Part shown: positions 5,446-28,899 of the stretch, piece after piece
Layout: every line of letters begins with the position of its first letter
How positions within the stretch are numbered: the stretch's first letter is position 1
From: Escherichia coli
GTDB taxonomy: Bacteria; Pseudomonadota; Gammaproteobacteria; Enterobacterales; Enterobacteriaceae
Assembly (NCBI RefSeq): GCF_044324785.1
Contig: NZ_CP172127.1
DNA length: 64,000 bases
Reading direction: 5' to 3' (one strand)
The notes under the pieces: model-generated
What the model was told of the DNA's origin: nothing
The model's input: only the letters and a program-made list of their open reading frames with translations
The model's database searches: none
Program-made: the position numbers and the translations under genes

Positions 5446-5818
5446 AAAAACTGCCGCTACTGGCAACTGTGTCGTGGTGGCATGTTACTGGCAGGTGGTT
5501 TACGGAGTATGGGCCCAATTCTGGCCTGCCGGAACATGCCCTTATAACCTTTAACACAGCGGTTACATAAAAAACAATGTCTTTTATGCACAGCAGTATT
5601 ATGGCTGAAAGTGAAATAAAAGCGCGATATTATACTGCTTCGCGTCCGGTTGTCATTATCATGGATAGTGCGTTATGTTTATAAAGGCGTGACGGACGCT
5701 TAATTCTCACGCAACGCACCCCTCTTAAATTTTCAGTTTCCGGTTTTGAATTTATTGCTGCTATTGGTGCTGCTTATGCGCACGCTGTAAGTCGGATATT
5801 GTCTGACGGAGGCGTACA

Positions 5819-6214
5819 ATGTACCGGATTTTCTGTTCCCTGTTTTTCCTGCCGCTGGCAGCGTCTGCTGGCACAACAATTTATACCGATTCTCAGCACC
5901 TCCCCGTTAATACTCCCGATGGTGTCAGGGTGGTTCTGCTGGATGCACCGGAGCAGCTTCAGAACCGCTTTTTTGGCTCGTTGCCTGCTGATGCGGATAA
6001 GGCTGAAGCGCTGGTCAGGGCACGTATGCAGTCTCCCGAATGGCAGATGATGCAGGCGGAACTGGCTGCTCATTACCGCGATGTGGCACATGCCTGGTCG
6101 CTGGGCGTGAAGAAATATCCTGCCGTGGTGTTTGATGACAGTGAGGTGGTTTACGGCACCACTGATGTGGTGGTGGCCGGGAAACTCCGTACTGAGGGAG
6201 GAGTGCAGCCATGA
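5819..6214 (+). CDS. integrating conjugative element protein, PFL_4709-like (secreted)
   Basis: 131 aa with signal peptide; stop overlaps next gene. Confidence 0.55.
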   Translation: MYRIFCSLFFLPLAASAGTTIYTDSQHLPVNTPDGVRVVLLDAPEQLQNRFFGSLPADADKAEALVRARMQSPEWQMMQAELAAHYRDVAHAWSLGVKKYPAVVFDDSEVVYGTTDVVVAGKLRTEGGVQP

Positions 6215-7185
6215 TATCCCTGAAAGGTCGTCTGCGTGCCGGCGCGCTGTTACTGAGTGTGGCATCACTGCCTCTGGCGTCTGCGTCACTGAATACTGCC
6301 AGCATTATCGCCAGCGCGGCGGCACCGGACTGTATCAGCTGGCGTGTCAGCGGGATTTGTTACTGGCTTTACTGCAGCACGTTTGGCTGCAAGGTCCGAA
6401 CCTCCGTGAAGGTGACGCATTTCATCCCGGAAGTGGTTGTTTCCACCTATACGGCACCGGGTGGTAATCCCTGGAAAGAGATGTCGCTGGTCAGCCGGAC
6501 GGCAGGTGGCCCGGAGAATGCCATCACTGACGGTCTGTCGGGGCTGAGTGCAGGCGGGGGAAATCCGGCGGATATGAAAGCACAGGGGGAGCGGCGTTCA
6601 GCCATTCGCTTCAAATACGCAGATGCGCTGGGGCATCCGGCAACGAAGCTTATCGGCGGGATGGTGCCCGGATTCAGCTGTGATTCACCGGTGACGCCGG
6701 CCATGCCCTATTTCCTGAGTACCCTGGACAGCATCGTCTGGCGAACGGGATTACCTGAATCCCTGTATCCCGAAGCACTGGTTCCCGGCAAACGCGAGAT
6801 TGGCAGCCAGGCCGATAAAAACATGTGGGGGAGTGTTTATCCAAGAAGCGGTTTTGTGATGCAGACCGATGATGACCGGGCCGCGGCGGTGGTGGCCCAG
6901 CGGGTGGCCGACATTATCACGCGGACGGGGGAGCCGCATGTCTACAGGGAGGTGAAGGGCGTGAAACGTGACGGCTACTGGCCCCCGGAGGCGGTGGAGG
7001 AAAACACCGGCACCCGCAATCACAAATGGCAGCGACTGACGCCGTCAGTGTCGCGTTCCTGTGCCGTTTTCCCGGATGGTGAACACCAGGCAGCGGAGAA
7101 CGGTAATGCCGCCTTTGCACTGTGGCAGCCCTACAGTTGCTGCAAAAAGCGCGGGCAGCGATTCCTTGGCAGTACGAATTTTTAA
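6211..7185 (+). CDS. TraU-like / PFL_4710-like conjugal transfer protein
   Basis: 324 aa, signal peptide, cysteine-rich motif CISWRVSGICYWLYCSTFGC reminiscent of TraU. Confidence 0.6.
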   Translation: MISLKGRLRAGALLLSVASLPLASASLNTASIIASAAAPDCISWRVSGICYWLYCSTFGCKVRTSVKVTHFIPEVVVSTYTAPGGNPWKEMSLVSRTAGGPENAITDGLSGLSAGGGNPADMKAQGERRSAIRFKYADALGHPATKLIGGMVPGFSCDSPVTPAMPYFLSTLDSIVWRTGLPESLYPEALVPGKREIGSQADKNMWGSVYPRSGFVMQTDDDRAAAVVAQRVADIITRTGEPHVYREVKGVKRDGYWPPEAVEENTGTRNHKWQRLTPSVSRSCAVFPDGEHQAAENGNAAFALWQPYSCCKKRGQRFLGSTNF

Positions 7186-7191
7186 GGAACC

Positions 7192-8613
7192 ATGATGATG
7201 AAGATGAAAACAGGTGTGGTGGCACTGAGTGTGATGCTGTGCTGCAGTACTCCGGTGATGGCTGATCTTCTTTCCCTGCCGAAACTGAATGACAGCACGT
7301 TCGGTTACGGGAAATCCGTGGATGGCGCCGTATCTGACAAACTGTTCTATACGCTGGGTGGCGGCTCGGTGATCTCCCAGCCAGCCACGCGCAGCAACAT
7401 GCAGAAGCTGGGTATGGACCTGGGCTGGAGCAGCGATCTGATGTGCGGCAACTTTGACCTGAAGACCACGGTGGGTAATCAGCTTAACGGCGTGACCGAA
7501 GGTTTTAAAAATCTGATGGGGGATGTGATTCAGGGGGCGACCGGCGCCGTTGCCAGTCTGCCGGCGATGGTGATACAGCGTGCCAATCCCGGCCTGTACG
7601 ACATGATCACCAACGGTGTGCTGCAGGCGAATGTGGCTTTCGACAAGGCGCAACTGAACTGCCAGAACATGGCAAAACGGATGATGGACTTTTCTGATCG
7701 CAGCAAATGGACGCAGGCTGCGATGCTGGAAGAGTACAAGAAGGTGGTGAACAGCGGTGACGGCGATGCGGTGAAAGGGGATGAGGCCGGGCGTCAGGCC
7801 ACCGGGAAGGAGGGTAAGAAATGGATTGGCGGACAGCAGCGTGGCGGGGCAGGTCAGCCCGCCATCCGGCCGGTGCATGATCTGACAGCGGCCGGGTTTA
7901 ACATGATGAACGGTCTGCCCGTGACCAGTACGGCCAGCGTCAGTGCCGGCAACTGTAACGGCAGCGCCTGTGAGATGTTCCGGAATGCAGAAGAGGCCGC
8001 GAAGGCGGTGGTGAAGGTGCTGGGTGATCGTACCATGCGCACCTGTACGGATGCGAAGGCCTGTACCAGCGGGGATAATGAACAGCAGCAGGGAACCGTT
8101 GCAGGAACGGGGTTTGCGCCGGTGCTGGAAGAGGCGACCCGGGTGAACACGGAACAACTGGTCCGTCTGGTGAATGGTCAGGAGAAACCCACAGCGGAGA
8201 ATCTGGCAAAACTGAAAACCGGCAGTCTGGCTGTCTCTGCAGGGGTGATCAATGCCCTGCGTCGTGACCCGGACAATATGTCCCTGACATCGCGGCTGGC
8301 GGGAGAACTGGCGATGGCGCATACCGTGGAAACGGCTCTGGTGATGCGCAGAATGCTGCTCACCGGGATGTCTGAGCCGTATGCGGCCGCAGAAGATGCC
8401 GCGATTCAGGAAGGCGACCGGCGTATCGCTTCACTGGACAGGGAAATCATGGCGCTGAAGAACGAGATGGAGCTGAAACGCGATCTGGCACGTAACAGCG
8501 TGCTGACCATCATTGAACGCGACAATGAGCGCGTGGGCAGCAACCCGATGATCCAGCCTGCAGACAATACTGACAGTCGTGTCCGGGCACTGGAAACTCC
8601 GGACGGGGAGTAA
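7192..8613 (+). CDS. integrating conjugative element protein, PFL_4711-like
   Basis: 473 aa, signal peptide, C-terminal coiled coil; conserved position before TraG-N gene. Confidence 0.6.
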   Translation: MMMKMKTGVVALSVMLCCSTPVMADLLSLPKLNDSTFGYGKSVDGAVSDKLFYTLGGGSVISQPATRSNMQKLGMDLGWSSDLMCGNFDLKTTVGNQLNGVTEGFKNLMGDVIQGATGAVASLPAMVIQRANPGLYDMITNGVLQANVAFDKAQLNCQNMAKRMMDFSDRSKWTQAAMLEEYKKVVNSGDGDAVKGDEAGRQATGKEGKKWIGGQQRGGAGQPAIRPVHDLTAAGFNMMNGLPVTSTASVSAGNCNGSACEMFRNAEEAAKAVVKVLGDRTMRTCTDAKACTSGDNEQQQGTVAGTGFAPVLEEATRVNTEQLVRLVNGQEKPTAENLAKLKTGSLAVSAGVINALRRDPDNMSLTSRLAGELAMAHTVETALVMRRMLLTGMSEPYAAAEDAAIQEGDRRIASLDREIMALKNEMELKRDLARNSVLTIIERDNERVGSNPMIQPADNTDSRVRALETPDGE

Positions 8614-8617
8614 GCGT

Positions 8618-8977
8618 ATGGCGATGACTCAGGGGACAAAAGCGGGGCTGGTCCTGAAGGGCGTTAAGGTGGCCGGCATGTGGCTGTCGGGCCTTATTGC
8701 CATGATGATTCTGGCCCTCCTGGTGGCTGATACGGGCATGCGGCATACGCAGGAAGTGGAAGCATTACGGCTCTGGCTCCACGAGACACGTTTCGGATGG
8801 CTGGGGTGGCGGGTGTGCCTCTACGGTGCGCTGGCATGGGGATGCCGGAAAATCTGGCGTGCGCCGGGGTTCAGACCGGAATACCGCCGTCCCTTTGCGC
8901 GGATTTGTCTGGTCAGTGCTCTGTTTGCGTTACTTTGCGAGTACAGCATTTTTTTCGGACCGGGGGCTGAACTGTGA
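8618..8977 (+). CDS. small inner-membrane protein of T4SS operon
   Basis: about 120 aa, two hydrophobic helices; stop overlaps traG-like start. Confidence 0.4.
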   Translation: MAMTQGTKAGLVLKGVKVAGMWLSGLIAMMILALLVADTGMRHTQEVEALRLWLHETRFGWLGWRVCLYGALAWGCRKIWRAPGFRPEYRRPFARICLVSALFALLCEYSIFFGPGAEL

Positions 8978-10476
8978 CCACGAATAACTATCTGGAACAC
9001 TTTCTGACCCTGCTGGGCTGGCTGGTGAATAACGGCCTGTGGGATCTGCTGACGGGGACGGGGCTGTTTGCCCTGCCACTGGCCTTCAGGGTTATCGGGA
9101 TCTGGCTGAAAGTGCGGGAAGAGGGGGCGGATGAGGGAAATAAAGGGATGCTCTCACTGCCCCGCATTGAGCATGCCCTGTATGGTGCATTTTTTGTGAT
9201 GGTGGCCTGCTGTGTGCCGCTGGTACAGGTGACGCTGGACACGCTGAAATTTGATCGCAGCCGTGCCCAGACCTGCGGTGTGTGGACACCGAAAGCACCC
9301 GGTGATACCGGGTACAGCGGGGTGATCAGCAGCCTGGGTGACAGGACAGCGGCCGCCCCGGTGTGGTGGGTGGTGGTGCATAAACTCTCCAAAGGTGTGA
9401 CGCAGGCTGCTGTGGCGTCCATTCCCTGCCGGCCGGATATACGGCAACTGCGTTTTGAGGTGCAGCGGACATTCATTGCGAACCGGGCGCTGGCCGACGA
9501 GCTGCAGGACTTCACCAACGACTGTTACTCGCTGGCGCTGTATCAGTGGAAGCAGCGTGACCAGGGGATGACGAAGGACAGGAAGCTGCTTTCGGATATC
9601 AGCTGGATTGGCAGCAGTACGTTCATGCAGGGTGACTACGGGACACTGCAGTCGAAAATGCCACGTGCGGCATTCCCGTGGAATAGCGCCCGTGACAGCG
9701 GCCGTCCGGATACGGGACGGGGGGGTTATCCCACATGCCGTGAATGGTGGAGTGACAGTAGTGTCGGGCTGAAGAAGCGGGTGACAGAGGAAGTTGATGA
9801 AGGACTGTGGTTACGTATTTCGGCGGCAATGAAAATGCTGGGGAACGCGCAGGCGAACTACCAGGAGGAAATCATCAAACGTCTGGTGAGTCCGGCGAAC
9901 CTGACCCTGTCACAGGGGGGGGAGGTGTACCGTGGCTATGGCGGTAATGCAGATATGACGGCGGCGAATGCGGTCACGCGTGCAGCAGGCACGGCGGGTT
10001 CTGCCGTTGCTAGTCTGGCAGCGTTTCCGGCGTTTGATGCGATGCGGCAGGCGCTGCCGATGGTGCAGAGTATTCTGCTGATGGCGGTGTATATCATGCT
10101 CCCGTTGATTCTGGCGTTTGCGGCGTATGAATTCAGCACGCTGATCACACTGACGTTTGTGGTGTTTGCACTGAATTTCCTGACGTTCTGGTGGGAGCTG
10201 GCGCGGTGGCTTGACAGCTGGATGCTGACGGCCTTGTACAGTTCGGACACGCATTCCCGAGTGAACATGATGGGGCTGCAGAACACGTCGGATGATATCA
10301 TCATGAATTTTGTGATGGGCACGATGTTTCTCGTATTACCGGCGGTGTGGCTGGGAGCATTATCCTGGGCTGGAGTTAATATCGGACAGGCTATTTCTGA
10401 GGGATTCAATCGAGCAGGGCATGTTACACAACAAGCAGGCCAGCATGCTGGAAGTTTTGTTAAAAGAATAAAATAA
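8974..10476 (+). CDS. TraG N-terminal domain family protein (mating pair stabilisation-like)
   Basis: 500 aa polytopic membrane protein; organisation matches TraG_N proteins of GI-type T4SS. Confidence 0.7.
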   Translation: MTTNNYLEHFLTLLGWLVNNGLWDLLTGTGLFALPLAFRVIGIWLKVREEGADEGNKGMLSLPRIEHALYGAFFVMVACCVPLVQVTLDTLKFDRSRAQTCGVWTPKAPGDTGYSGVISSLGDRTAAAPVWWVVVHKLSKGVTQAAVASIPCRPDIRQLRFEVQRTFIANRALADELQDFTNDCYSLALYQWKQRDQGMTKDRKLLSDISWIGSSTFMQGDYGTLQSKMPRAAFPWNSARDSGRPDTGRGGYPTCREWWSDSSVGLKKRVTEEVDEGLWLRISAAMKMLGNAQANYQEEIIKRLVSPANLTLSQGGEVYRGYGGNADMTAANAVTRAAGTAGSAVASLAAFPAFDAMRQALPMVQSILLMAVYIMLPLILAFAAYEFSTLITLTFVVFALNFLTFWWELARWLDSWMLTALYSSDTHSRVNMMGLQNTSDDIIMNFVMGTMFLVLPAVWLGALSWAGVNIGQAISEGFNRAGHVTQQAGQHAGSFVKRIK

Positions 10477-10822: not shown

Positions 10823-11118
10823 CGCGGCCTCCTGTAAGTGGATAATCATCCTGGTACTATCATACGTGTTGTATGATAAATGTTCAATGCTTGCGAATCC
10901 AGGTATAATTGTCCGATTTTGCACCTCCTGCTGTACAGCTTGTGATGTGGGCCAGGATGTGACTCTGCATGTCACAATAGCTCCAGGAACTTCAGTCTCA
11001 GCCCTGCTGAACATTGTGTGATTAATTTTTAAAAATGAGAAAAGAATAATCTCTCTTTTTAGTCGTCCGGCTATGCCTTAATTCTCCCTGAGTCAAAACC
11101 TGTATCAGGAGAAGCTGA

Positions 11119-14160: not shown

Positions 14161-14470
14161 TTAACTGTCGCTTCGGCGACCACCAATGTTCCATGAGGCC
14201 TGTGAGGAACGCCTTCGGGTGGCCCATGTCGCTCCGGCGACCACCAATGTTCCATGTGGCCTGTGAGGAACGCCTTCGGGTGGCCCACGTCGCTCCGGCG
14301 ACCACCAATGCTCCATCTGACCAGTGAGGAGCGCCTTCGGGTGGTCAGTTTTACACCTCCGTAGCCTGAAAGGAGCTGTGCGTGCTGATGGGATATGTTT
14401 CCGGAAGTACGGGTAAATCTGCACACCTTTGCGAGCAGATGTCACCACGGTTTACGTGATGATGAAGGCA
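14161..14470. repeat. composite repeat copy 1: three tandem ~61-bp units (14166-14226, 14227-14287, 14288-14347) plus ~120-bp unique tail
   Basis: Directly visible; about 95 percent identical to copy at 16463-16773; each unit has GTCGC-TCCG-GCGAC hairpin and conserved GAGGAACGCCTTCGGGTGG core. Confidence 0.9.
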
Positions 14471-16462: not shown

Positions 16463-16773
16463 TAACTTGTCGCTTCGGCGACCACCAATGTTCCATGTGG
16501 CCTGTGAGGAACGCCTTCGGGTGGCCCATGTCGCTCCGGCGACCACCAATGTTCCATGTGGCCTGTGAGGAACGCCTTCGGGTGGCCCACGTCGCTCCGG
16601 CGACCACCAATGCTTCATCTGACCTGTGAGGAGCGCCTTCGGGTGGTCAGTTTTACACCTCCTGAGCCTGAAAGGAGCTGTGCGTACTGAAGGGATATGT
16701 TTCCGGAAGTACGGGCAAATCTGCACACCTTTGAGAGCAGATGTCACTGCGGTTTTCCGTGATGATGAAGGCT
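16463..16773. repeat. composite repeat copy 2 (same orientation as copy 1)
   Basis: Same three-unit tandem structure and tail as 14161-14470. Confidence 0.9.
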
Positions 16774-17928: not shown

Positions 17929-18177
17929 ATGCAAATAAGTGCAGAAACTCGCGCTGTTTTACGTCACTACAGACAGATCATTAACGCCAGACGGCGTGAA
18001 GATGGCATGAAAGCTCTCAGCACGCCGCAAATCGTTGATGAGATCTGTGAGTTTATGCTCAGCCAGCCAGCAGTGTATCTGGGGGGGGCAGTTCATCATG
18101 CAGAAGGCCAGAACAAGATAGCTGTCTTTGTTCATGGCTTTTCAACAGACCGTTATGCTTTCGCCACCACATGGTAA
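17929..18177 (+). CDS. hypothetical small protein
   Basis: 82 aa with SD GGAGAA. Confidence 0.35.
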   Translation: MQISAETRAVLRHYRQIINARRREDGMKALSTPQIVDEICEFMLSQPAVYLGGAVHHAEGQNKIAVFVHGFSTDRYAFATTW

Positions 18178-18261
18178 GGCGGGTCTGATTTTACTGTTAA
18201 CCGTACGGTTCACTCTCATACCGTACGGTGGGAGTGAACCCTTTTCATTAAGGACACTCTC

Positions 18262-18771
18262 ATGAAAACGAAAACTTCTGCACCTGCTGTATATGTTGGT
18301 ACCTGGGCTAAATACAACAATGGCAGCATAGAAGGATGCTGGTTTAATGATTTAACCGTTTTTGAAACTGAAAGCGATTTTTTATCTGCGGCCCGTAAGT
18401 TTCATCAGGATGAAAAAGATCCTGAATTTATGTACCAGGATTATGAAAACTTTCCTTCGGGAATGGCTTCAGAATATGGTTTCAACTGGGCTTATGTTGA
18501 AGGTTATCGTCTTGCCCGTGAAGAAGGCTGTGAAGATGCATGGTATGCATGGGTTTCTAATACCGGTGATACCTGTTTCGAACAGTTCAGGGAGGCGTGG
18601 CTTGGTGGTCCTTATGACAGTGAACTCGAGTTCGCCGCGCAGTACGTGGATGAATGCGGTTTTCTGTCAGAGGTACCTGATACTGTTGCACGCTATTTTG
18701 ATTATGAGGCTTTTGCGCGCGATTTGTTCATGGAACTGGATTTTGTCGACGGACACGTTTTCCATCGGTAA
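18262..18771 (+). CDS. ardA: antirestriction protein ArdA (DNA-mimic inhibitor of type I restriction)
   Basis: 169 aa, very acidic; N-terminal AVYVGTWAKYNNGSIEGCWF and C-terminal YFDYEAFARDL motifs match ArdA family as recalled (e.g. Tn916 Orf18, ColIb ArdA). Confidence 0.8.
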   Translation: MKTKTSAPAVYVGTWAKYNNGSIEGCWFNDLTVFETESDFLSAARKFHQDEKDPEFMYQDYENFPSGMASEYGFNWAYVEGYRLAREEGCEDAWYAWVSNTGDTCFEQFREAWLGGPYDSELEFAAQYVDECGFLSEVPDTVARYFDYEAFARDLFMELDFVDGHVFHR

Positions 18772-18967
18772 CTCACAGCCATGAGGGCGCATATAAGCCG
18801 TGTACTGGCGGATGTGATTTCAGCATACATTCTGCTGGTTTTTTTACCGTTGTTGACAATTTTAATCATCGCGGATGAACAACCTGAACTCTGTTGTTCA
18901 CCGCCCGGAGGCATCGTTCCTTCGGACGGTGTGCTCTTTCATCAGAAAGAATCAGACAGGGGGTTTT

Positions 18968-19327
18968 ATGTATTCGCGTTTTATTACTGGTTACTGGCAT
19001 CTTCAGACGCAGTCCGCTTTGCTGGCACATCTCTGTCAGCTTGAAGGTGAACTGACGATACTTCGCGCCTGGCAACGTCTCGGAATTACCCCGGTGCCGG
19101 AGGATGAAGATGAGCCTTCACCACTTTACTCAATTTTGTGGGATGTTGGTGAGGCTCTGGGCTGGTTGCTGTATGACCTGGAGATGGAAAATGTTCCTGC
19201 ACCGGGAACGATTTTCCACGAGGTATTCGACAGGGTTATATCTCTGGGGTATGAGACTGAGCCCGGTATCTGGGCTGAAAGTATCAGTACCGGAAAGCGC
19301 TACGCTGCAATGCCTGACGAATTTTAA
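18968..19327 (+). CDS. hypothetical protein
   Basis: about 119 aa from ATG with SD AGGGGG; followed by hairpin terminator 19343-19385. Confidence 0.4.
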   Translation: MYSRFITGYWHLQTQSALLAHLCQLEGELTILRAWQRLGITPVPEDEDEPSPLYSILWDVGEALGWLLYDLEMENVPAPGTIFHEVFDRVISLGYETEPGIWAESISTGKRYAAMPDEF

Positions 19328-19394
19328 TGTTTTCCACATTCCCACAGGGACTCATCCCTGTGGGACGGGTCCCGGCTTTTTCAGGAGAAATTTC

Positions 19395-19733
19395 ATGAGA
19401 CCCGATTTGAATACTTTACCCGGAGATTCCGGCTGCAGCGTCTGGTTCTATGACGGAATGTCTCAACCGCGTCTGCTGGCGGGCAGTATTGCCGGGTTAC
19501 TGACGGATGTTACGATCACATCGAATTACCGTGGTGACGTCACATCTGAAATTCATGACGTGGTGCAGGAGTGGCTTGCGACCGGCAGGGGTAACCTGGC
19601 GGATTTAAAGGAAGAACTCTGGTACTACAACCTCTACATAAATCCGTCGGCAGACGAACTTATGAATGCCAACAGGCGGTATGGCCTCGGACATACCACC
19701 AGGCTGAAAGGCTTTATCAATAACGCGGCGTGA
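19395..19733 (+). CDS. hypothetical protein
   Basis: 112 aa with SD AGGAGA. Confidence 0.4.
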   Translation: MRPDLNTLPGDSGCSVWFYDGMSQPRLLAGSIAGLLTDVTITSNYRGDVTSEIHDVVQEWLATGRGNLADLKEELWYYNLYINPSADELMNANRRYGLGHTTRLKGFINNAA

Positions 19734-19808
19734 CACACCGCCATCCCGTGAGGGCTCAGCTCCTCACGGGGCTGTTCCCTCGGTGATTTTCATACAGAGA
19801 GGAGCAGA

Positions 19809-20246
19809 ATGATGAACGTTAAGTCTGTGACTGAGGTTGACGACGCTGTGGTTGCCCGTGTCAGTGAAGTTCTGGAATTCGCATTTCCGGGGCAGAAATT
19901 TGAAGTGCTGAAGGTATGCGATTCCGGCGTTTACAACATGATTAATGTGTACTGGCTGGACGGCCCGACACAGGCTGAAGTGCGGTTTATCACCCGTGCG
20001 TTTGAAGGCAAAAACGGGCTGAGGTTTGTGCACGAATCCCGCGAATTCAGTAATGAATTTGTGCAGGAGTGCATTGACCGGCTTCGCCAGAAGTACGGGC
20101 ATCGCAACGTTCCGCCAGAGGTGACCGTGGAGCGTTACTGGAAAAACGATCTGTGGAAGATTAAAACAGATCGTTTCCCGGGCACTATTGAGGTTGCCAT
20201 CAACGAAATGGGGATGGAAACCAGTAAATACCGGAAGGTTGTATAA
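19809..20246 (+). CDS. hypothetical protein
   Basis: 145 aa with SD GAGAGGAG. Confidence 0.45.
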   Translation: MMNVKSVTEVDDAVVARVSEVLEFAFPGQKFEVLKVCDSGVYNMINVYWLDGPTQAEVRFITRAFEGKNGLRFVHESREFSNEFVQECIDRLRQKYGHRNVPPEVTVERYWKNDLWKIKTDRFPGTIEVAINEMGMETSKYRKVV

Positions 20247-20332
20247 CCGGCTGGACTTTTGACGATGGCGGAATGTGACAATTCCGCTTTTCCCGTGAGG
20301 GCATTGTTCCTCACGGGACAATGCCCTCTTCA

Positions 20333-21331
20333 TTTACCAGAGGAGCATTGATTATGGCTGAATGGTGCAGAAATCGTTTTGAAATCACCGGTAAGTCAGT
20401 CTGTCTTGACGTACTGATTCAGTGGATTGAAGGGAATGATGCCCCCCGGTACCGTCATGCGATCCAGCAGAGCATACTGCTGTTTCTTGCAGGCTGTGCG
20501 GGGATACTGAAACCGGTAAGAACGGTGTCATATCCGCCTTATCCCGGGCTGGTCAGTCACGGTGCCGGCTCAACAACTGTAGCCAGTCAGGCGTTTGAAC
20601 AATGGCTGGGATTACTGACCAGGGATGCCTTCCTTGATCACGAGACGGTGAAGACAATAGATCGTCTTTATCATCAGACAGGGACAGGCGCTATCCGGTG
20701 GAGTAATCTGCCTGATACGGCGAAGGAGATAATCGGTGGTGTGCTTGCACAACAATATGCTGACTGGTTTGGCGTGGCGGATGTGTATGAACGCCCTGAT
20801 AACGCCTTTCTCTGGGAGTCGTTGTTAACATTTGCGGAGTATTCGCAACCCTGTGATATGCTGCAGGTGATGCCAACACGACTGGCCACGGAGCTGAACG
20901 GAAGTGGTGGTTTGCTGAAAGGCACCGGAACGACCCGCAGTTTTTACTGCCGCCAGTTTGGTATGGAGTACCCACTGGGGCAGAATGTCCGGTGGAAACG
21001 AACCGGGCTGAGTACGTTGATACTGGAGTTTGATACCATCTGGTGTCCGCCTTCAGGTGTACTGGTGGGGGAGATTTCGGCAGTGTTTGACTGTGAGGTC
21101 CGTCACTGGTACAGCGAGCCGAAGAACGGAATCAGAGGCTATGACTGTTATGATGGTGGTGAACATACGGACAGCAATATGGAAGCCGAATGGCCACACT
21201 CTGACGATGAGGGGGAGGTCGCGGAGCATGAGCAGCCACAACTCTGTCTGATCAGGGACACGCAGCCAGGTGAACGCGTCATGGCATTAGCATCAGTCGA
21301 GTCCCCGGGGCCAGTAGTAAAAATAGTGTAA
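20333..21331 (+). CDS. hypothetical protein
   Basis: 332 aa with SD AGAGGAG; acidic C-terminus. Confidence 0.45.
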   Translation, partial: FTRGALIMAEWCRNRFEITGKSVCLDVLIQWIEGNDAPRYRHAIQQSILLFLAGCAGILKPVRTVSYPPYPGLVSHGAGSTTVASQAFEQWLGLLTRDAFLDHETVKTIDRLYHQTGTGAIRWSNLPDTAKEIIGGVLAQQYADWFGVADVYERPDNAFLWESLLTFAEYSQPCDMLQVMPTRLATELNGSGGLLKGTGTTRSFYCRQFGMEYPLGQNVRWKRTGLSTLILEFDTIWCPPSGVLVGEISAVFDCEVRHWYSEPKNGIRGYDCYDGGEHTDSNMEAEWPHSDDEGEVAEHEQPQLCLIRDTQPGERVMALASVESPGPVVKIV

Positions 21332-21340
21332 TGAAACAAT

Positions 21341-21366
21341 GCGCCACATTTTGTGGCGCTTTTTTA
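21341..21366. terminator. hairpin terminator between convergent genes
   Basis: GCGCCAC-ATTTT-GTGGCGC then T-run. Confidence 0.5.
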
Positions 21367-21412
21367 ATAAATCAGTGATGGCAGAGTTGTTATTGTAAAT
21401 AACTCTCCGTGT

Positions 21413-24328
21413 TTACTGAGTCAGTTTTTTTATCAGGTCGTGAATTTTATCACCTGAAAACTGGGTCATGAAAGTTATCTTTATGGATTTACTGATTTGT
21501 TCGAAGAGTTTCTGTGCATGTTTTATTTTATCGCGTTCTTCATGTCTGAGTTCACGTTTGCCATCAACATTTTTGGTTTCAATAATAAGGTTCAGATAAT
21601 CACCCTTTGACGTGTTTACAACATAAGCGAAGTCAGGGGAGTAAGTGTATCCTCCCGCTACAGGAATTTTTATTGAATTTTTGGGGATCTTTGTGAAGAC
21701 AATGACTGACCTGACCTCACCCTCTGTCATATTGAGTTTTTCAAGTTCTGAATCATAAAATACTTCTTCAAAAAGATAAGAGTCCAGTGGAGGGCTTGTA
21801 TTATCCTGTAAAACGCCAAGATCACTTGACAATACATCAGCAAGATAACCGCCGTCTGCATTGGTGAATTTCGTGGGATGGACAGTTCCTGATATTACAT
21901 TATACCCAAGGCTGAATTTACTGAACGAGTTATTAAGCAAATACTTGCTGAAACCAGATTTAATTTTTCTGATTGTCTGAATGTTAAGGTATTCAGTTAT
22001 ATTTATGATGTCTTTTATATCACAAAAAACCTTATGCATGGTGTCATGTTTGACAAAAATAGTCTGTGATAATTTATCAAGGAATTCACGATAGCTCATT
22101 GTGTTTATTTTGTGAAAATTATCCTCATCAACACTGAGAATGCTTTTCGACATTGCCGTATCATTATGGATATAAATTCTTTCAATACGAGTATGAGCAC
22201 CGGATTTGGTAAATCTGTCTGCTTCTTCCAGCATAAACGCTCTGAAAAGGGATAAAAACTCACGTTCACTTTTTATTTTATACTCAATCACGACCTTTTG
22301 ATTGATCAAGTCCCATAGTTCTTTCAGCTCACTGAACTTACCAACACGCATTTTAGTGCGTCTTTTTCCATCAGAGGCTTTTTTTATTTTGCCTGGTTTC
22401 ACTCCTGCAGGAAATGCTGCCGGATATCTGGCTTTTAAGCGGCTATAGGCATCTGAATCTTTGAAGTTATCATTATCATCAATGATCTCATCACCAAAAA
22501 TTTCATTCAAGAGTGTTCTGGAGGAAAGCTCCGGATATTGAGACAGGATTTTATCCTTAAGCTCCTGAGTAAACTTACCTGGAACAGTCTCTTTGAAAGA
22601 ACTATCGTTGATCTCTTTGACAAGAGAATCGACAAAATCTTTTTCTGTAAAATCAACATAATAGTTGAGGGTAAAATTGCGGTCTTTCACACGACACATG
22701 TATTCATTCACCGGAAGACGTAAACCACGCCCTACTTCCTGAAGTTTAGATGTGGTGCTACCGCTCGAACGGAGCTTACAAATCTGAAAGACATTTGGGT
22801 TATCCCATCCCTCACGCAACGTCCATTTAGAGAAAATGAAACGGCGAGGATTTTCTAAAGACAATAGAAGCTCTTTATCATGAAGGATTTCGTTGATTTC
22901 CTGCTCAATTTTATCATCTTTATCACTATTATCTTTTGAAAAATAACCACCATGAACAGAAGATATATCCTTAACAGTTTTTTCAAGGTAGTTTCTGTAA
23001 AACTCATCTTTTTCTGTTTTTAACAGTTCATTTGCTTCTGCCAAAACGTATTCTTCGAACTTAGTTTTCAGGCTTCCTGCAATATCATTACCATCACGAT
23101 AGCCTTCAATGTCATCAATGAAGAAAAGAGTAAGAGGTTTTATGCGTGGCCTTTGTGTCAGATACTCTTTTTCTAACTTAAAGTGTTCTTTGACAGCTTT
23201 ACGTATCATGTTATCAGCAAGTGTCTGATCGTAAGAATAGGGGTTTATCGAACTACCAATTTTTAGCTCAATACCATTACTCAACACTGCTGTATTCTTA
23301 TTTAAAGCATCAAGAGTTAAATCATGGATCGCACTATGCGTCTTAGATAGTGATTCACCTTTGGCTAACTTAAAAATTTTTTTATTATTATTTTCGTTCA
23401 GTTCAAATGTAGCTTCTTTTCCGTCAGATTTGACCAACTTGAGGTTGGCATTACCATCACCAACTATATCCTCAATGTATGCATCAATACCTTTAACAAG
23501 ATCTTCATTGAAGGCATCTACGGCTGTAAGACGATAAACTAAGTTCTTATAGCCTTCACTAAAGGTTGCACCATAGCGGATGATATATTGGGCATTAAAT
23601 TTTTGAATATGTTCCCATGTCTTTTTACCAGTAGGAAATTTATGAGGCTCATCAATGATAATGAATGGTTTTATCGCACTAAGTGCAGAAAATGGGGTAT
23701 CAAACTGATTATTAAGCAAGCCAACATCATAAGTGTCAGTTAAAGACTTAGAGTTAATCATCCCTGAATTGATCACAAGAATGTGTATATATTTCTTATT
23801 GAAATTACTTGCTTCAACAAAATCATGGATAGCTTGAGGTATATACGATTTTGTATTTTTACCCGAACGTTTCTGACTTTCAACAACGTAAGTCTTTAGT
23901 TCACGCTCGTAATCATCTCGAAAGTGTTCTTTTATAGCATCGCTTTTTAAAAAGTTAACGGTTCCGGCTTTGATCGATAGGGTAGGAACAATGATGATAA
24001 ACTTGTTAATACCAAATGATTTGTTCAGGTCAAAAATTGTTTTGGTGTAAGTATAAGTTTTACCTGTACCTGTCTCCATAGAAACATCAATTACGTTGCT
24101 TTTAGCATCGTAATTATCTTTTGAGTGCTCAATACCATTGAACTCCTGAACATTTTTTATGTTGTTGTAGTATTGTTGTTCAGATAGATTCAGTTCTGGA
24201 TTAGCTAACAGGCGAATTGCAACATGATCCGTCTGATGAGGTATGGCGGATACAAAGACATTCATTACCGAATCAACGCCAGCCTTTTGATGAGGTAAAT
24301 TTTTTTCGAATGTGAACCCTTTAGACAT
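21413..24328 (-). CDS. res: Type III restriction endonuclease, Res subunit
   Basis: 971 aa; helicase motifs METGTGKTYT and IIIDEPH; C-terminal PD-(D/E)xK-like region; size typical of EcoP15I-like Res; AT-rich. Confidence 0.85.
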   Translation of the reverse strand: MSKGFTFEKNLPHQKAGVDSVMNVFVSAIPHQTDHVAIRLLANPELNLSEQQYYNNIKNVQEFNGIEHSKDNYDAKSNVIDVSMETGTGKTYTYTKTIFDLNKSFGINKFIIIVPTLSIKAGTVNFLKSDAIKEHFRDDYERELKTYVVESQKRSGKNTKSYIPQAIHDFVEASNFNKKYIHILVINSGMINSKSLTDTYDVGLLNNQFDTPFSALSAIKPFIIIDEPHKFPTGKKTWEHIQKFNAQYIIRYGATFSEGYKNLVYRLTAVDAFNEDLVKGIDAYIEDIVGDGNANLKLVKSDGKEATFELNENNNKKIFKLAKGESLSKTHSAIHDLTLDALNKNTAVLSNGIELKIGSSINPYSYDQTLADNMIRKAVKEHFKLEKEYLTQRPRIKPLTLFFIDDIEGYRDGNDIAGSLKTKFEEYVLAEANELLKTEKDEFYRNYLEKTVKDISSVHGGYFSKDNSDKDDKIEQEINEILHDKELLLSLENPRRFIFSKWTLREGWDNPNVFQICKLRSSGSTTSKLQEVGRGLRLPVNEYMCRVKDRNFTLNYYVDFTEKDFVDSLVKEINDSSFKETVPGKFTQELKDKILSQYPELSSRTLLNEIFGDEIIDDNDNFKDSDAYSRLKARYPAAFPAGVKPGKIKKASDGKRRTKMRVGKFSELKELWDLINQKVVIEYKIKSEREFLSLFRAFMLEEADRFTKSGAHTRIERIYIHNDTAMSKSILSVDEDNFHKINTMSYREFLDKLSQTIFVKHDTMHKVFCDIKDIINITEYLNIQTIRKIKSGFSKYLLNNSFSKFSLGYNVISGTVHPTKFTNADGGYLADVLSSDLGVLQDNTSPPLDSYLFEEVFYDSELEKLNMTEGEVRSVIVFTKIPKNSIKIPVAGGYTYSPDFAYVVNTSKGDYLNLIIETKNVDGKRELRHEERDKIKHAQKLFEQISKSIKITFMTQFSGDKIHDLIKKLTQ

Positions 24329-24330
24329 GA

Positions 24331-26367
24331 TTAGTTCCTTACCACCAAATCTAAATCAATAGATTTTTTATTAGCATAACTTTTTAGTGCTTCATTGAGT
24401 TCCATCTGTTTCGCACTTTCGAAGTTGCTGCCATAAAATACAACTTTGTTAGGGGCAAAGTCTTTGTCTGCATCCAGCTTTTGAAGTAAAGCTTTCAAAG
24501 CCTCACTTGTGAAATTAGGCGCAATTAGATATAGCCGACCATCGCACAAGTGTGCTTTGTAGCCATTAAGGTCAATATCTTCAATTGGTGTTGTTAGCAA
24601 GCTGCCATCATACACGCACCATGTCGTCAATAGAGTGTCATACTGCTCTGGTGTCAATACAGCATCGTCAAAGAAACTAAGATTAGAAAGCGTAAGTTCA
24701 GACTCATCTTTCACTCGAAAATCATGAACTGTTTCAAATATTTTAAATCCCAAATCTCCATTATAATTAGGATTATCTTTTTTCAGCTTTTTTCCTGCCT
24801 TAATAATTCTGTCTTTTGTTATATTGAAGATGGATTTATACCCTTCTTTATAGGCTTGTTTCTTTTTATCTGTTTCTTCATCTAATTGAACACAGATGAA
24901 GTTTCTTTTCCTGCCGTCTTCAATATTTAACTCCAGAATACCATGAGCTGTAGTTCCAGAGCCAGCAAAAAAGTCAAGATAAATGTCTTTATCTTCGGTT
25001 TTTACTGAACCAAATAGTGTTTTTATTAAACTTGTTGGCTTCGGGTAGGAGAAATATCCTTTCCCACCAAAAAGATTTTCAACCTCAACACCACCATCAC
25101 TTTTAGTTGAAATAATTGATCTTAGTAAAAACTCTTCAACTTCATCTAAAAATTTAACCGAACTGGGTTGGGTGTTTTCTGTACTGGCAAACCAAATTCC
25201 ACCACAAATAACGCTACCATCATGTAGTTTTTTGATATCTGCATACTTTCCATCTATTCTTTTTGCAATATGATTAAAAGTGCCTTCTTTCCAACGCCAG
25301 CCTCTGTCTGGGATTTTGACAGGGTTATTAGTCAAAGGGTGCAATACTTCATACGTGGGTCCAAATGAATCTGCATTAGGCCAGCTCATATTAATTTTAC
25401 CCCATGGCCTATAATCTTCGTTCAAACAGTTGTAAAGAGTAATTCCACGATCATATCCGTTGGAGCTGTAGAATTTTTTGAGTTGCTGCTCTGCTTTATC
25501 TAATGGCACCTTCTCCTTTTTTAACTTTTCAATAAACTGATATACATCATCAATACCATCTTTCCGCATTAAAAATTCTTTACTTATTTCGTTATTCTTC
25601 GCATAAGCAAGGATGTACTCATGGATATTACCAATACCCTTATCATTTTTAGGGATACGTTTATTCCATACAATATTTTCTATGAAATTTGCTTCGCCAA
25701 AAATTTCATCACAAATAGTTTTAAGTTGATTTAATTCATTTTCGTCAATCGAAATAAATATCACACCATCTTCACGTAGAAGCTCACGAGCAATATATAA
25801 ACGAGGATAAATGAACGTTAACCATGCGCTATGGCTGCTTGAACCATTCGTGGTAAATTCAAGTATACGTTTAGCCTCATCAAGATCGATACCTGCCAGA
25901 TCAGAAAGCTGTTCAGGTGTAAACTTGCGATCATCGTTATAGGCGAATCCATCCTTACCTGTATTGTATGGTGGATCAATGTAAATCATCTTCACCTTTT
26001 CAGAGTAAGCATTAACCATATGCTTCAATACTTCGAGGTTATCCCCTTTGATTAACAGATTCTGACTGTTTTTGTTCTCTTCACGTTGGTTATGGTCTTT
26101 ATCTTCGGAGAGTAATGTCTTCGGCGGCAAGTTAGCTAACAGACGGGCATAGGATTTACCAAGCCAGTTCAGGCTGTATGATTCTTTGGAGAGTTCAACA
26201 TCCGATGATTTGACGATTTCAAGCAATTTTTCCTGAATGAACGCTCCATTTTTATCAAAACACTGTGGAAAGTTAGCCTTTAAAATCGCAAGCTGTTTAC
26301 TGTTTGTGGTTTCAGTTTCAGAGAAAAGAGTTTCTTTTTTCAGTTGAAATTGGGGTTGTGTATTCAT
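24331..26367 (-). CDS. mod: Type III DNA methyltransferase, Mod subunit (N6-adenine, beta-class)
   Basis: 678 aa; motif IV IYIDPPYN precedes motif I FFAGSGTT; own SD GGAGG 6 nt before ATG; immediately upstream of res. Confidence 0.85.
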   Translation of the reverse strand: MNTQPQFQLKKETLFSETETTNSKQLAILKANFPQCFDKNGAFIQEKLLEIVKSSDVELSKESYSLNWLGKSYARLLANLPPKTLLSEDKDHNQREENKNSQNLLIKGDNLEVLKHMVNAYSEKVKMIYIDPPYNTGKDGFAYNDDRKFTPEQLSDLAGIDLDEAKRILEFTTNGSSSHSAWLTFIYPRLYIARELLREDGVIFISIDENELNQLKTICDEIFGEANFIENIVWNKRIPKNDKGIGNIHEYILAYAKNNEISKEFLMRKDGIDDVYQFIEKLKKEKVPLDKAEQQLKKFYSSNGYDRGITLYNCLNEDYRPWGKINMSWPNADSFGPTYEVLHPLTNNPVKIPDRGWRWKEGTFNHIAKRIDGKYADIKKLHDGSVICGGIWFASTENTQPSSVKFLDEVEEFLLRSIISTKSDGGVEVENLFGGKGYFSYPKPTSLIKTLFGSVKTEDKDIYLDFFAGSGTTAHGILELNIEDGRKRNFICVQLDEETDKKKQAYKEGYKSIFNITKDRIIKAGKKLKKDNPNYNGDLGFKIFETVHDFRVKDESELTLSNLSFFDDAVLTPEQYDTLLTTWCVYDGSLLTTPIEDIDLNGYKAHLCDGRLYLIAPNFTSEALKALLQKLDADKDFAPNKVVFYGSNFESAKQMELNEALKSYANKKSIDLDLVVRN

Positions 26368-26581
26368 AACGCACCTCCAGAATGCACGGAGGTACTTGAC
26401 GCGGAATTTTTATACAGGCATATTGTTGCGTTGCGTTGCGTTGCGTTGCGTTGCGTTGCGTTGCGTTGCGTTGCGTTGCGTTGCGTTGCGTTGCGTTGCG
26501 TTGCGTTGCGTTGCGTTGCGTTGCGTTGCGTTGCGTTGCGTTGCGTTGCGTTGCGTTGCGTTGCGTTGCGTTGCGTTTCAT
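26318..26581 (-). CDS. leader ORF containing the pentanucleotide tract; encodes (RNATQ)x10; overlaps mod start by 49 nt in current frame
   Basis: ATG at 26581 with SD GAGG; ORF reads through repeat and ends at 26318 inside mod. Confidence 0.4.
   Translation of the reverse strand: MKRNATQRNATQRNATQRNATQRNATQRNATQRNATQRNATQRNATQRNATQQYACIKIPRQVPPCILEVRYEYTTPISTEKRNSFL
26426..26575. repeat. pentanucleotide simple-sequence repeat (TTGCG)x30 on + strand (CGCAA on mod strand)
   Basis: 30 perfect tandem units counted directly. Confidence 0.95.
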
Positions 26582-26614
26582 TAAATAGCCTCGAGTTTCG
26601 TTTTACAGGTTTTT

Positions 26615-26643
26615 ATTCTAACCTGAATTGTTGATTTTCTGAA
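26615..26643 (-). promoter_or_regulatory. candidate sigma70 promoter for leader-mod-res
   Basis: -35 TTCAGA and -10 TAGAAT with 17-bp spacing on minus strand, about 30 nt upstream of leader ATG. Confidence 0.35.
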
Positions 26644-26661
26644 TAAGTCTGACGTCAGTTG

Positions 26662-26830
26662 TTACGGGAAGGTATCAGAGTGGCTAGATGCACTGTGGCA
26701 CGTCTCATGGCGGTTATGGGGCTTGCCGGCGTTCTCCGGGGGGTAAAGCTCCGTGCTACTGTCACCTGGAACGCCGTTGCCGCAGGCGACCGCGTAAACC
26801 GTCTGTACCGCCCGGGCCCAATATTAAGAA
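26662..26830 (+). pseudogene. short remnant resembling IS3-family transposase OrfB N-terminal region
   Basis: translation VARCTVARLMAVMGLAGVLRGVKLRATV...DRVNRLY resembles the RxxVARLMRxxGL pattern of IS3-family OrfB; GC-rich patch in AT-rich context. Confidence 0.3.
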
Positions 26831-26858
26831 CTAACGTCATACCAGGGACGTTGTCTGA

Positions 26859-27872
26859 ATGGATGAGAAGCTAAAACATGCGGATTTATCGTCTTTGCCA
26901 GAGCAGGTGAGGGTTGCCGCTAGGGAGCTTGTTGACCTGAAGTTTCGTATCGATATGGCAGCAAGAGGCGGTACGTCAGGGATACCACTTGACCTGCATG
27001 GGAGGATGACAGGAGGAGAATGGGGGCCGCATTGCGGGCTGGAATTTTTCTGCAGCATCATTCCTTTTTTCCCGCGAGATTTTGAAACCTGTTCAGTAAC
27101 TGAAATGTTGGTTCCTACCTTACATACCTTCGGCTGCAACTGGCGTTGGTGGCCCGATCGTTATTGTAGCGACAAAGATGAACACTATATACGGCGTCAC
27201 ATTTTTTCTGATTACGGGCTGAAAAGTACGAGCTATACCTTCATTCCTCAGTTGGGATTGTTCTGCCCGAGTGAAGGTAAAAATCGTGTTAACTTCTGCC
27301 GCCATCACGGTATCGAATATATCCCCGCACAGGTTTATTCCCATGATTACCCAGAAGCAAATCGAATCTCTGTGTACGTTCAGGATACTGCCGGAGGGCT
27401 GGATGTGTGGGCCGTTCTTGATAATCGCTATGTTCAGAAGGTTACTCACTATGCCTTTGCGCTCCCACTTTTGTGCGCTTATGGGGTAGAGTTCCCAGGT
27501 AAGTGGCCAGCAGGATGGCCATCGATATCGGACCTCCTGGCTAATCAACTGTGTTGCACTGATGACACAACCTTTCATAAACCCGTGATCGATATGCAAG
27601 CTGTCAGGGATACGCTGGATCGTGATGAGAACAGCAGAGAGGATGGGGAGATGTATGTCAAAACCAATGTGGTTGAGCTGCCGCTGGCCGGGCTGGTTCG
27701 CTTCATTCTGATCGCAATGTTACTGAGTTTAGGTGCGTTGTTCATCCACGAGGTACTGGATGAGGGAAGCCTGTCCAGGATTGCACTGGGAATAAGCACT
27801 TTCACGGCTGGCGTGGTTGCTTCGTTTTTTATCCCAGCGTTCCGTATCAAGAAAAAATATCTTCGCAAATAG
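26859..27872 (+). CDS. hypothetical protein with C-terminal double TM anchor
   Basis: 337 aa; Cys/Trp-rich soluble domain then two hydrophobic helices; no family recognised. Confidence 0.45.
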   Translation: MDEKLKHADLSSLPEQVRVAARELVDLKFRIDMAARGGTSGIPLDLHGRMTGGEWGPHCGLEFFCSIIPFFPRDFETCSVTEMLVPTLHTFGCNWRWWPDRYCSDKDEHYIRRHIFSDYGLKSTSYTFIPQLGLFCPSEGKNRVNFCRHHGIEYIPAQVYSHDYPEANRISVYVQDTAGGLDVWAVLDNRYVQKVTHYAFALPLLCAYGVEFPGKWPAGWPSISDLLANQLCCTDDTTFHKPVIDMQAVRDTLDRDENSREDGEMYVKTNVVELPLAGLVRFILIAMLLSLGALFIHEVLDEGSLSRIALGISTFTAGVVASFFIPAFRIKKKYLRK

Positions 27873-28012
27873 TTGTGGCATTTCTTGAACACTTTTTCGA
27901 GACAGGTTCAACCGCAGGCATTCAGGCCAAACATGCGGTTAAACTACGTATTCAATTAACTGCCCTAAATATGGCTAAGCGCCCGGACGATATGTCTGTC
28001 TGCACCTAGGTG

Positions 28013-28142
28013 GAAATTACACCCTCTAAAGGGAGCTGATCTTAGAGGTCATTGGGAAATATCAGTAAACTCTAACTGGCGAATTACCTTTCGATTTGAA
28101 GGCGAAGACGCAATTCTGGTTGACTATCAGGATTATCATTGA
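28013..28142 (+). pseudogene. higB/RelE-like toxin, C-terminal fragment only
   Basis: KGADLRGHWEISVNSNWRITFRFEGEDAILVDYQDYH matches HigB C-terminal consensus; N-terminus absent (in-frame stop upstream). Confidence 0.5.
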
Positions 28143-28204
28143 GGGATAACTGAACCGCCCCGGGAATCCTGGAGACTAAACTCCCTGATAAAGAGGTAAA
28201 CAGA

Positions 28205-28546
28205 ATGACTAAAAATACTCGTTTTTCCCCCGAAGTCCGTCAGAGGGCGATTCGTATGGTTCTGGAAAGTCAGGGCGAATATGACTCACAGTGGGCGGCA
28301 ATTTGTTCCATTGCCCCAAAGATTGGCTGTACACCGGAGACTCTGCGTGTCTGGGTACGCCAGCATGAGCGGGATACCGGAGGCGGTGATGGCGGGCTCA
28401 CCACCGCTGAACGTCAGCGTCTGAAAGAGCTGGAACGTGAAAATCGTGAACTGCGCCGCATCGTCTATGGAAACGACATTCGTGCTGGATGCTCTGGAGC
28501 AGGCGTTATGGGCCCGTCGACCGTCCGGCACAGTCCATCACAGTGA
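28205..28546 (+). pseudogene. IS629-like transposase OrfA, 3'-disrupted
   Basis: [85 protein letters not shown] then divergent tail. Confidence 0.6.
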
Positions 28547-28853
28547 TAAAGGTTCTCAGTATGTATCGCTGGCCTACACACAGCGGCTTAAGGAAGCCGG
28601 ATTACTGGCATCAACAGGAAGTACTGGTGACTCGTATGACAACGCGATGGCGGAGAGCATCAATGGCCTTTACAAAGCGGAGGTAATACACCGTAAGAGC
28701 TGGAAAAACCGGACAGAAGTGGAGCTGGCCACACTCACGTGGGTGGACTGGTATAACAATCGACGATTGCTGGAAAGGCTGGGCCATATCCCACCGGCAG
28801 AAGCAGAAAAAGCTTATTATGCTTCCATCGGAAACGATGATCTGGCAGCCTGA
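28437..28853 (+). pseudogene. IS629-like transposase OrfB, C-terminal part only
   Basis: [49 protein letters not shown]... DDE-domain C-terminus. Confidence 0.6.
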
Positions 28854-28899
28854 GTTCACAGATAAAACACTCTCCAGGAAACCCGGGGCGGTTCAAACT

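Follow-up and report, generated by a model that had tools for sequence, protein, structure and literature searches.

A 64,000-nt stretch of Escherichia coli DNA (contig NZ_CP172127.1 of RefSeq assembly GCF_044324785.1; hereafter the window) carries on its minus strand a two-gene type III restriction–modification operon and, immediately ahead of it, a long pentanucleotide repeat contained in a short open reading frame (ORF) of its own. The first gene, mod (24331..26367), encodes a methyltransferase/specificity subunit of 678 aa, and the second, res (21413..24328), an intact restriction subunit of 971 aa. mod lies directly upstream of res in one operon: the mod stop codon ends at 24331 and the res ATG begins at 24328, a gap of 2 nt. 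Both genes were taken from the list of ORFs and assigned by protein family, motifs and comparison with solved structures.

Mod contains the Pfam domains N6_N4_Mtase (residues 125-498) and T3RM_EcoP15I_C (575-670), matches the Mod subunit of EcoP15I (4zcf_A) with an E-value of 2e-242, and has DPPY (131-134; motif IV) ahead of FAGSGTT (467-473; motif I). This motif order, that of a beta-class N6-adenine methyltransferase, the central recognition domain and the C-terminal domain are those by which the EcoP1I/EcoP15I family is recognized. Res contains ResIII (53-257) and RE_endonuc (851-955), scores 1072 bits against the NCBIfam type III endonuclease model NF012027 (cutoff 564), aligns end to end with the Res subunit of EcoP15I (4zcf_C, residues 1-968), and has the motifs GTGKT (87-91) and DEPH (226-229) and the nuclease motif PD...ETK (898-919), in keeping with a full-length subunit built of an SF2 helicase-like ATPase and a C-terminal PD-(D/E)xK nuclease. 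Judged from sequence, mod–res is an intact type III restriction–modification operon of the EcoP1I/EcoP15I family. Gene order and the 2-bp gap are as in EcoP1I of phage P1 (PMC3874151), with which Res shares 85.6% amino acid identity and the operon 83.5% DNA identity (to P1 res–mod); both subunits align end to end with the EcoP15I (p15B) structure 4ZCF; and, as in both of these systems, the genes are AT-rich relative to the host. Unlike EcoP1I and EcoP15I, the operon is carried by an integrative conjugative element (ICE) rather than by a phage or plasmid, and its recognition domain differs from that of other alleles.

The central target-recognition region of mod (24724..25660, minus strand) is marked out by a gap in DNA homology to two loci, L010 and L012 (L numbers denote the loci compared), where other alleles stand under the same leader. 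Mod alleles are mosaic, with conserved ends; residues ~200-560 are only 2-60% identical in four alleles and 98-100% identical in L009 and L011. The recognition domain of the window's Mod equals that of the LF82 and L009 alleles.

The repeat tract and its leader reading frame

The tract (26425..26574, minus strand) is a perfect simple sequence repeat (SSR), (GCAAC)x30 on the mod coding strand, with 100% matches in a tandem-repeat search; read on the plus strand it is (GTTGC)x30.6 at 26425-26577. It is the sole short-unit repeat array of the window. Other E. coli carriers have 7, 13, 19, 21, 24, 25, 29, 33, 34, 37, 40 or 47 units, and in the closest strains the adjoining 5.4 kb show just 0-6 substitutions. 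The sole difference between the window and L001 is 30 versus 47 units; likewise, positions 21000-27200 are 100% identical to the chromosome of the avian-pathogenic E. coli (APEC) strain E19035 (O2:K1:H5) apart from the length of one repeat. In all carriers the tract is perfect or near perfect and holds the same place relative to an ATG led by a Shine–Dalgarno (SD) sequence. By strain, unit counts are 47 in APEC E19035, 37 in 2013C-3033, 33 in CM2, 29 in GF60, 25 in ECCNB12-2, 19 in 2015C-3121 and 13 in Br_112. Strain TUM1886 has 25 units in each of two assemblies. Short-read and draft assemblies (e.g., L161, L162 and L165) end, or carry runs of N, at the tract, and its length is usually lost. 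Variation of this kind is the signature of what we take to be a hypermutable contingency repeat. E. coli is usually seen as poor in repeat-driven contingency loci.

A sigma-70-like promoter, TTCAGA-17-TAGAAT (26615..26643, minus strand), is predicted upstream of the leader ORF, and the repeat would therefore be transcribed. The leader begins at an ATG (26581-26579) preceded by GAGG (26592-26589) with 7 nt between; the ATG is followed by AAAC and then by the repeat. In its present frame the ORF (26318..26581, minus strand; from the list of ORFs) specifies 87 aa starting MK(RNATQ)n. GAGG stands 5-7 nt upstream of the leader ATG in both E. coli leader types, and RefSeq annotates the leader ORF in L002, L005, L010 and L012. 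A spacer of 57 nt separates the repeat from the mod ATG (26367) and includes mod's own SD, GGAGG (26378-26374), 6 nt before the ATG.

Three frames lead out of the tract, and each meets its stop at a different point on the minus strand. Where the number of units n equals 1 mod 3 (frame a), the leader stops at TAA 26412-26410, 45 nt before mod; where n equals 2 mod 3 (frame b), the stop is TGA 26366-26364, which overlaps the mod start as ATGA; and where n equals 0 mod 3 (frame c, the state of the window with n = 30), it is TGA 26320-26318, 49 nt inside mod. Among the E. coli tracts (L001-L012, L159-L164) 9/15 are in the first of these states, 2/15 in the second and 4/15 in the third. The possibility that the repeat encodes an N-terminal extension of Mod was considered and rejected, because in all E. 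coli carriers a stop in the frame of mod sits between the tract and the mod ATG: the TAA at 26412-26410, 12 nt past the repeat, or TGA in L009. The repeat cannot, then, be part of Mod, and it lies outside the mod frame in which classical modA-type loci carry theirs.

Folding of the 279-nt leader RNA gave only one stable element, a predicted 9-bp hairpin (26371..26395, minus strand; centroid ~-14 kcal/mol) in which GUACCUCCG is paired with UGGAGGUGC. Here the mod SD, GGAGG, would be sequestered by pairing with the upstream GUACCUCC. The repeat RNA is strikingly unstructured (z +4.9); a long hairpin involving the repeat, like that of hmw, was rejected, since the repeat folds worse than every shuffle. 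An Rfam scan of 21000-27200 at E <= 1 gave zero matches. The divergent E. coli locus L009 (93.6% nt identity over the cassette) starts its leader differently and has 6 nt inserted in the spacer, yet an SD-led ATG, the same three stops and the SD hairpin are all retained.

Repeat leaders ahead of other genes

A scan for (GCAAC)x5 in one genome per species recovered at least 120 loci, which we treat as a sample. In three of these a relative of mod stands beside the tract. In Acinetobacter calcoaceticus the repeat is inside mod, the classical arrangement. In Bibersteinia trehalosi, whose Mod is 44% identical in its N-terminal part, and in Rodentibacter caecimuris the order is that of the window: an SD-led leader ATG, 9-12 nt, (GCAAC)n and a spacer with the mod SD. 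Two frames of these leaders stop early; the third passes the mod SD and ends 11-13 nt into mod.

The B. trehalosi locus is informative in that its methylation has been recorded. A methylome study of four strains placed the repeat "43 bp upstream" and reported that M.Btr192II methylates with 15 units but is silent with 17 or 14 (PMC4996451). The methylase gene and 1 kb upstream of it were otherwise identical; the authors described no leader ORF and left the role of the repeat open, writing that it "warrants further study" (PMC4996451). In the genome sequences the 15-unit strain 192 is in the read-through leader frame and the 17-unit strain (CP006954) meets an early stop; 14 units fall in the same frame as 17, by arithmetic only. 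The B. trehalosi methylomes therefore fit a rule based on frame, with one exception that is weighed below. M.Btr192II and the E. coli locus share repeat unit and strand, the SD-led leader ATG and a type III mod, the B. trehalosi repeat ending ~41-43 nt before the mod ATG. They differ in that B. trehalosi has one read-through frame, with its stop 13 nt into mod, whereas E. coli has two and also a stronger SD hairpin.

Among the matches listed, a heuristic search picked out 11 GCAAC loci in which a short leader ORF precedes a separate gene. At 9/11 of them (8/10 without L009) the first stop of one frame lies within -15..+13 of the downstream start (shuffle P ~0.001). The leader stop forms an ATGA overlap with the start of an EcoRI-type methylase gene in Spirabiliibacterium, lies 11-13 nt into a GT61 glycosyltransferase gene in Brachyspira, and falls at or just after the SD of two spirochaete lipoprotein genes. 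No repeat leader was found with the close relatives of the B. trehalosi Mod in Pasteurella multocida, Avibacterium paragallinarum and metagenomic contigs (L148-L157), and the leader is therefore no family-wide trait; the Mod of L148-L157 belongs to a four-gene arrangement, SNF2 helicase – DUF4391 – mod – res.

One further locus, L085 (Clostridia bacterium PG1894_132), has a (GCAAC)14 leader ORF at ~11040-11089 with early stops in all three frames, and a terminator-like hairpin with a T run after the leader, ahead of a gene for a 964-aa surface protein. Its layout resembles an attenuator-type version of the leader-repeat arrangement.

A candidate switch and its alternatives

We consider it moderately likely that the locus is a phase-variable type III system switched by translational coupling to the upstream ORF. 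Slipped-strand gain or loss of units in (GCAAC)n would shift the frame of the leader and with it the point at which leader ribosomes stop. In frame a, ribosomes would stop 45 nt ahead of mod and leave the mod SD in its hairpin, and this state is predicted to be OFF. In frame b the UGA overlaps the mod AUG; a ribosome arriving there would melt the hairpin and re-initiate, and because AUGA is the textbook configuration for coupling, frame b is predicted to be ON. In frame c, that of the window, the hairpin would be melted and the start overrun, with an output that is uncertain and perhaps intermediate. The E. coli locus might then have three expression states instead of two. Since type III Res needs Mod for DNA recognition (PMC3874151), the activities of Mod and Res would switch together.

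The components of this proposal are familiar. As in classical translational coupling, there is an AUGA overlap (in frame b) and an SD in a predicted hairpin that a leader ribosome could melt; in the classical case, however, the frame is fixed, whereas here a mutable repeat would pick among three leader frames. Termination–reinitiation at AUGA overlaps and leader-ORF control of a sequestered SD are established bacterial mechanisms. An effect of unit number on expression is supported only indirectly, by the homologous locus of B. trehalosi, where methylation was seen with 15 units but not with 14 or 17, strain 190 being the exception.

Several observations weigh against this proposal. The frame predicted to be OFF accounts for nine of the 15 E. 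coli tracts, a skew that is unexplained. Having two through-reading frames, against one in the Pasteurellaceae, makes the assignment of ON and OFF in E. coli less clean. B. trehalosi strain 190 (L145, CP006956) has 15 units and the read-through frame, yet was reported as unmethylated (PMC4996451); it carries another recognition allele. The promoter is a consensus match only, in a region whose count of promoters is not above that of shuffles. The stability of the SD hairpin does not differ significantly from shuffles (z -0.6 to -0.8), which leaves it a suggestive element only; Bibersteinia has just a weak counterpart and Rodentibacter none. Taken by itself, the window's locus would have a stop near the start by chance in 58% of shuffles, and the -15..+13 distance range behind the P of ~0.001 was picked post hoc.

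It is also conceivable that the length of the tract, and not its frame, tunes mod, be it through promoter or operator spacing, mRNA stability, Rho loading or a structure in the 5′ untranslated region (5′-UTR) like that of hmw1A. Repeats at 5′ ends are known to act in such ways, in hmw1A (PMC12721329) and in nadA and other promoters (PMC5149525); the tract does lie between the predicted promoter and mod, and its C-rich, unstructured RNA would suit Rho loading. The B. trehalosi data sit poorly with this account: a methylase that is ON at 15 units and OFF at both 14 and 17 responds non-monotonically, and a face-of-helix effect does not fit either, the step from 15 to 17 units being 10 bp, or roughly one turn of the helix. 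Moreover, nothing in the leader can pair with the repeat, unlike in hmw, and an SD-led leader ATG with frame-specific stops near the downstream start recurs in unrelated loci. We regard tuning by length as improbable. We find it slightly less probable still that the tract is a neutral hypervariable microsatellite in front of a constitutive, acquired defence cassette that uses mod's own strong SD. A neutral tract would have to be reconciled with its being the sole such array in 64 kb, 30 units long, and with its perfect or near perfect state, in the same place, at 7-47 units in all carriers; with the GCAAC unit and layout preceding methylase genes in three Pasteurellaceae genera; and with B. 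trehalosi methylomes that vary with the tract in strains otherwise sharing an identical gene and 1 kb of upstream sequence (PMC4996451). In its favor are the GGAGG that mod has 6 nt before its ATG, the weak significance of the SD hairpin, and the relatives in P1, plasmids and LF82 that work without a repeat.

A further alternative accepts the switch and concerns its purpose: the main role might be epigenetic rather than defensive, Mod ON/OFF altering methylation and expression as a phasevarion. The intact, full-length Res of the window and most carriers speaks against this, as does the carriage of the cassette by mobile elements, in the manner of a defence module; on the other side, a phase-variable type III mod with allelic central recognition domains is the hallmark of phasevarions (PMC5909438, PMC1976455), the Mod alleles described above are mosaic in a phasevarion-like manner, and in one carrier (L003) res is frameshifted. 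We think a mainly epigenetic role rather unlikely. Whichever role it serves, the locus probably works as a contingency switch, even though it fails the classical test of a repeat within the mod frame. The tract had gone unremarked in a first, sequence-only reading of the window, and probably makes this a switchable restriction–modification system rather than a constitutive one; without the repeat and the leader ORF, the finding that the operon was acquired would by itself be ordinary.

That type III systems reside on mobile elements, and that repeats drive phase variation of type III mod genes, is already known. With modA, modB, modD, modH, modM and modS the E. coli locus shares a 5′ SSR, a unit count that varies among strains, conserved ends and a hypervariable center; in modA-type genes, however, the repeat is inside the mod frame and frameshifts truncate Mod (PMC5909438, PMC5149525), whereas here it occupies a separate upstream ORF, where a survey confined to SSRs in mod ORFs would pass it over. 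In P1, mod has two promoters, P1mod and P2mod, and no repeat; here the (GCAAC)n leader ORF takes the place of everything upstream of codon ~8. The one published phase-variable methyltransferase of E. coli that we found is M.Eco131I of the Shiga-toxin-producing strain DG131/3, with CAGCGAC[n] in the annotated ORF; a REBASE survey of 2018 presented it as the first such enzyme known from pathogenic E. coli (PMC5909438). Like the present locus it is a type III mod with a long, strain-variable 5′ repeat that collapses in short-read assemblies; unlike it, by the published description, its unit is a heptanucleotide reported inside the ORF, at another locus. The heptamer repeat in the 5′-UTR of Haemophilus influenzae hmw1A is comparable in being transcribed in a leader outside the regulated ORF (PMC12721329); there, however, a long RNA hairpin is cut by RNase III and expression drops with length (PMC12721329), whereas the RNA of the present repeat is unstructured.

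In reviews, two classes of repeat switch are distinguished, frameshifts within an ORF and effects on promoters or operators (PMC5149525), and none of the terms "translational coupling", "leader" and "uORF" appears in a phase-variation review of 2025. Our literature search, necessarily incomplete, found no paper linking GCAAC repeats to E. coli mod. We tentatively suggest, as a possibility that falls short of being likely, that an SSR in a short upstream ORF, one or two of whose three frames feed a downstream start, amounts to a general and so far unnamed way of varying phase, a third next to frameshifts within ORFs and changes in promoter spacing, and that it serves methyltransferases, glycosyltransferases and surface proteins in Pasteurellaceae, Brachyspira, rumen spirochaetes and an E. 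coli ICE. If switching through the leader ORF is real, then a mobile element carries a stochastically flipping restriction barrier that may double as an epigenetic regulator, with consequences for phage sensitivity and DNA uptake and perhaps for gene expression. It would account for the unexplained Bibersteinia methylome result, and it would mean that surveys limited to repeats inside mod ORFs undercount phase-variable methyltransferases.

Acquisition and surroundings of the cassette

The genes around the operon are those of an ICE of the PFGI-1/ICEclc type, according to the RefSeq annotation of the identical region in APEC E19035: TIGR0375x ICE proteins, a conjugative ATPase, TraG, a type IVB pilus with shufflon, the relaxase TraI and a tyrosine recombinase. 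The sequence-only reading had proposed that mod–res is a separately acquired, AT-rich cassette nested in this island, and had suggested a comparison with island homologues lacking it. Three such ICEs in E. coli (L013, L014 and L015) match the window's backbone at 97% identity between 18000 and 21363-21365 and once more from the traF stop (29790) onward; their slots are without mod–res and hold 0.75-3.6 kb of unrelated small genes in its place. Because backbone homology with these cassette-free ICEs ends at 21365 and restarts at 29790, we place the borders at 21366 and 29789. They delimit, between the DUF1281 terminator and the traF stop, a variable cargo slot of 8.4 kb (21366..29789), the left 5.3 kb of which is filled by mod–res.

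Base composition agrees with the earlier description. GC content is 0.366 in 21366-26644, the 5.3-kb stretch with the lowest GC of the window, as against 0.502 in 18000-21365, 0.503 in 26645-29789 and 0.593 in 1-10000, the secretion core; GC at third codon positions (GC3) is 0.315 in mod and 0.325 in res, compared with 0.54 in DUF1281 and 0.61 in TraF. Neither synteny of mod–res in homologous islands nor continuity of composition across its edges was seen. The cassette moreover occurs in other settings: beside the integrase in islands that occupy four different tRNA genes (that of LF82 among them; 86-94% nt identity), in phage P1 (83.5%), and on plasmids of 40-55 kb in Klebsiella, Salmonella and Enterobacter (86-88%). 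By these comparisons mod–res is separately acquired cargo of the ICE, and no ancestral component of the island. The matches to tRNA islands, P1 and plasmids all stop ~25 nt inside mod (window ~26340), from which it follows that the leader upstream is a separate module. Public assemblies contain the exact Mod protein of L004 in 1222 indexed blocks, and the locus is therefore widespread; the carrier island is present in avian-pathogenic and Shiga-toxin-producing E. coli strains.

The edges that had been proposed for the cassette fared less well. The left one, the hairpin GCGCCAC-ATTTT-GTGGCGC with its T run (21341..21365), exists and scores as an intrinsic terminator on either strand; its hairpin, at 21341-21359 and with TTTTTT after it, has a folding energy of -14.2 kcal/mol (z -3.06). 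It is also kept in the islands without the cassette, however, and is therefore the backbone terminator of the DUF1281 gene, a marker of the left border that stands outside the cassette. The right one, described as the N-terminus of an IS3-family transposase, is a real IS3-like remnant, a 162-bp fragment of an IS629/IS1203-like transposase gene (26645..26806, plus strand; ~90% identity) that abuts the leader promoter. Because its profile match is confined to positions 159-190 of the 369 in the NCBIfam IS3 profile, the piece is internal and has no N-terminus; RefSeq likewise reports both termini missing. That it might be a complete IS3-family element was rejected, as only 162 bp match and inverted repeats are absent at its ends. 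Nor does it form the right border of the acquired segment: the backbone restarts only at 29790, and the slot runs on past the fragment with a gene for a 337-aa hypothetical protein, decayed RelE/ParE and HigA genes, a deleted IS629-like element and an autotransporter fragment. Searches around the cassette for target-site duplications and terminal inverted repeats gave chance-level matches only, and a joined-flank query found no exact empty site among 5,426 complete E. coli genomes. An NCBIfam search with the flanking DUF1281 and 337-aa proteins, and with the L107 and L111 proteins, gave zero matches.

Some features of related cassettes and of the neighboring DNA may be recorded here. On the islands of LF82 (L011), G47-1, an enterotoxigenic E. 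coli isolate and Combat13F7 (L011, L016-L018) the cassette is repeat-free and the order is tRNA – integrase – hypothetical protein of 95-120 aa – mod – res; between them these islands occupy four different tRNA genes (Leu, Asn, Phe and Arg), and the hypothetical protein has a weak ParC-like match. Among E. coli carriers of the repeat leader several systems are disturbed: res is frameshifted in L003 and mod in L010, IS1 is inserted in the 5′ end of mod in L008, and IS1414 lies between the backbone terminator and res in L005. Within the slot, a 745-bp element at 28151-28895 has 25-nt inverted ends (TGAACCGCCCCGGGAATCCTGGAGA) and lies over a frameshifted coding sequence annotated as "integrase core domain", with the decayed RelE/ParE and HigA genes adjoining; it looks like an internally deleted IS629-like insertion sequence. 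ardA is present on the island, as the sequence-only reading had it, at 18262-18771 (Pfam ArdA, 2.7e-26); the suggestion made there that it and mod–res are not redundant is beside the point, ArdA being an anti-restriction protein of the ICE. Finally, two identical arrays of a 61-nt unit, with 2.9 copies each, lie 2.3 kb apart at 14166-14344 and 16468-16646, where they flank a hypothetical gene and a gene for an "integrase domain-containing protein" in an AT-rich stretch (13-14 kb, GC 0.335).

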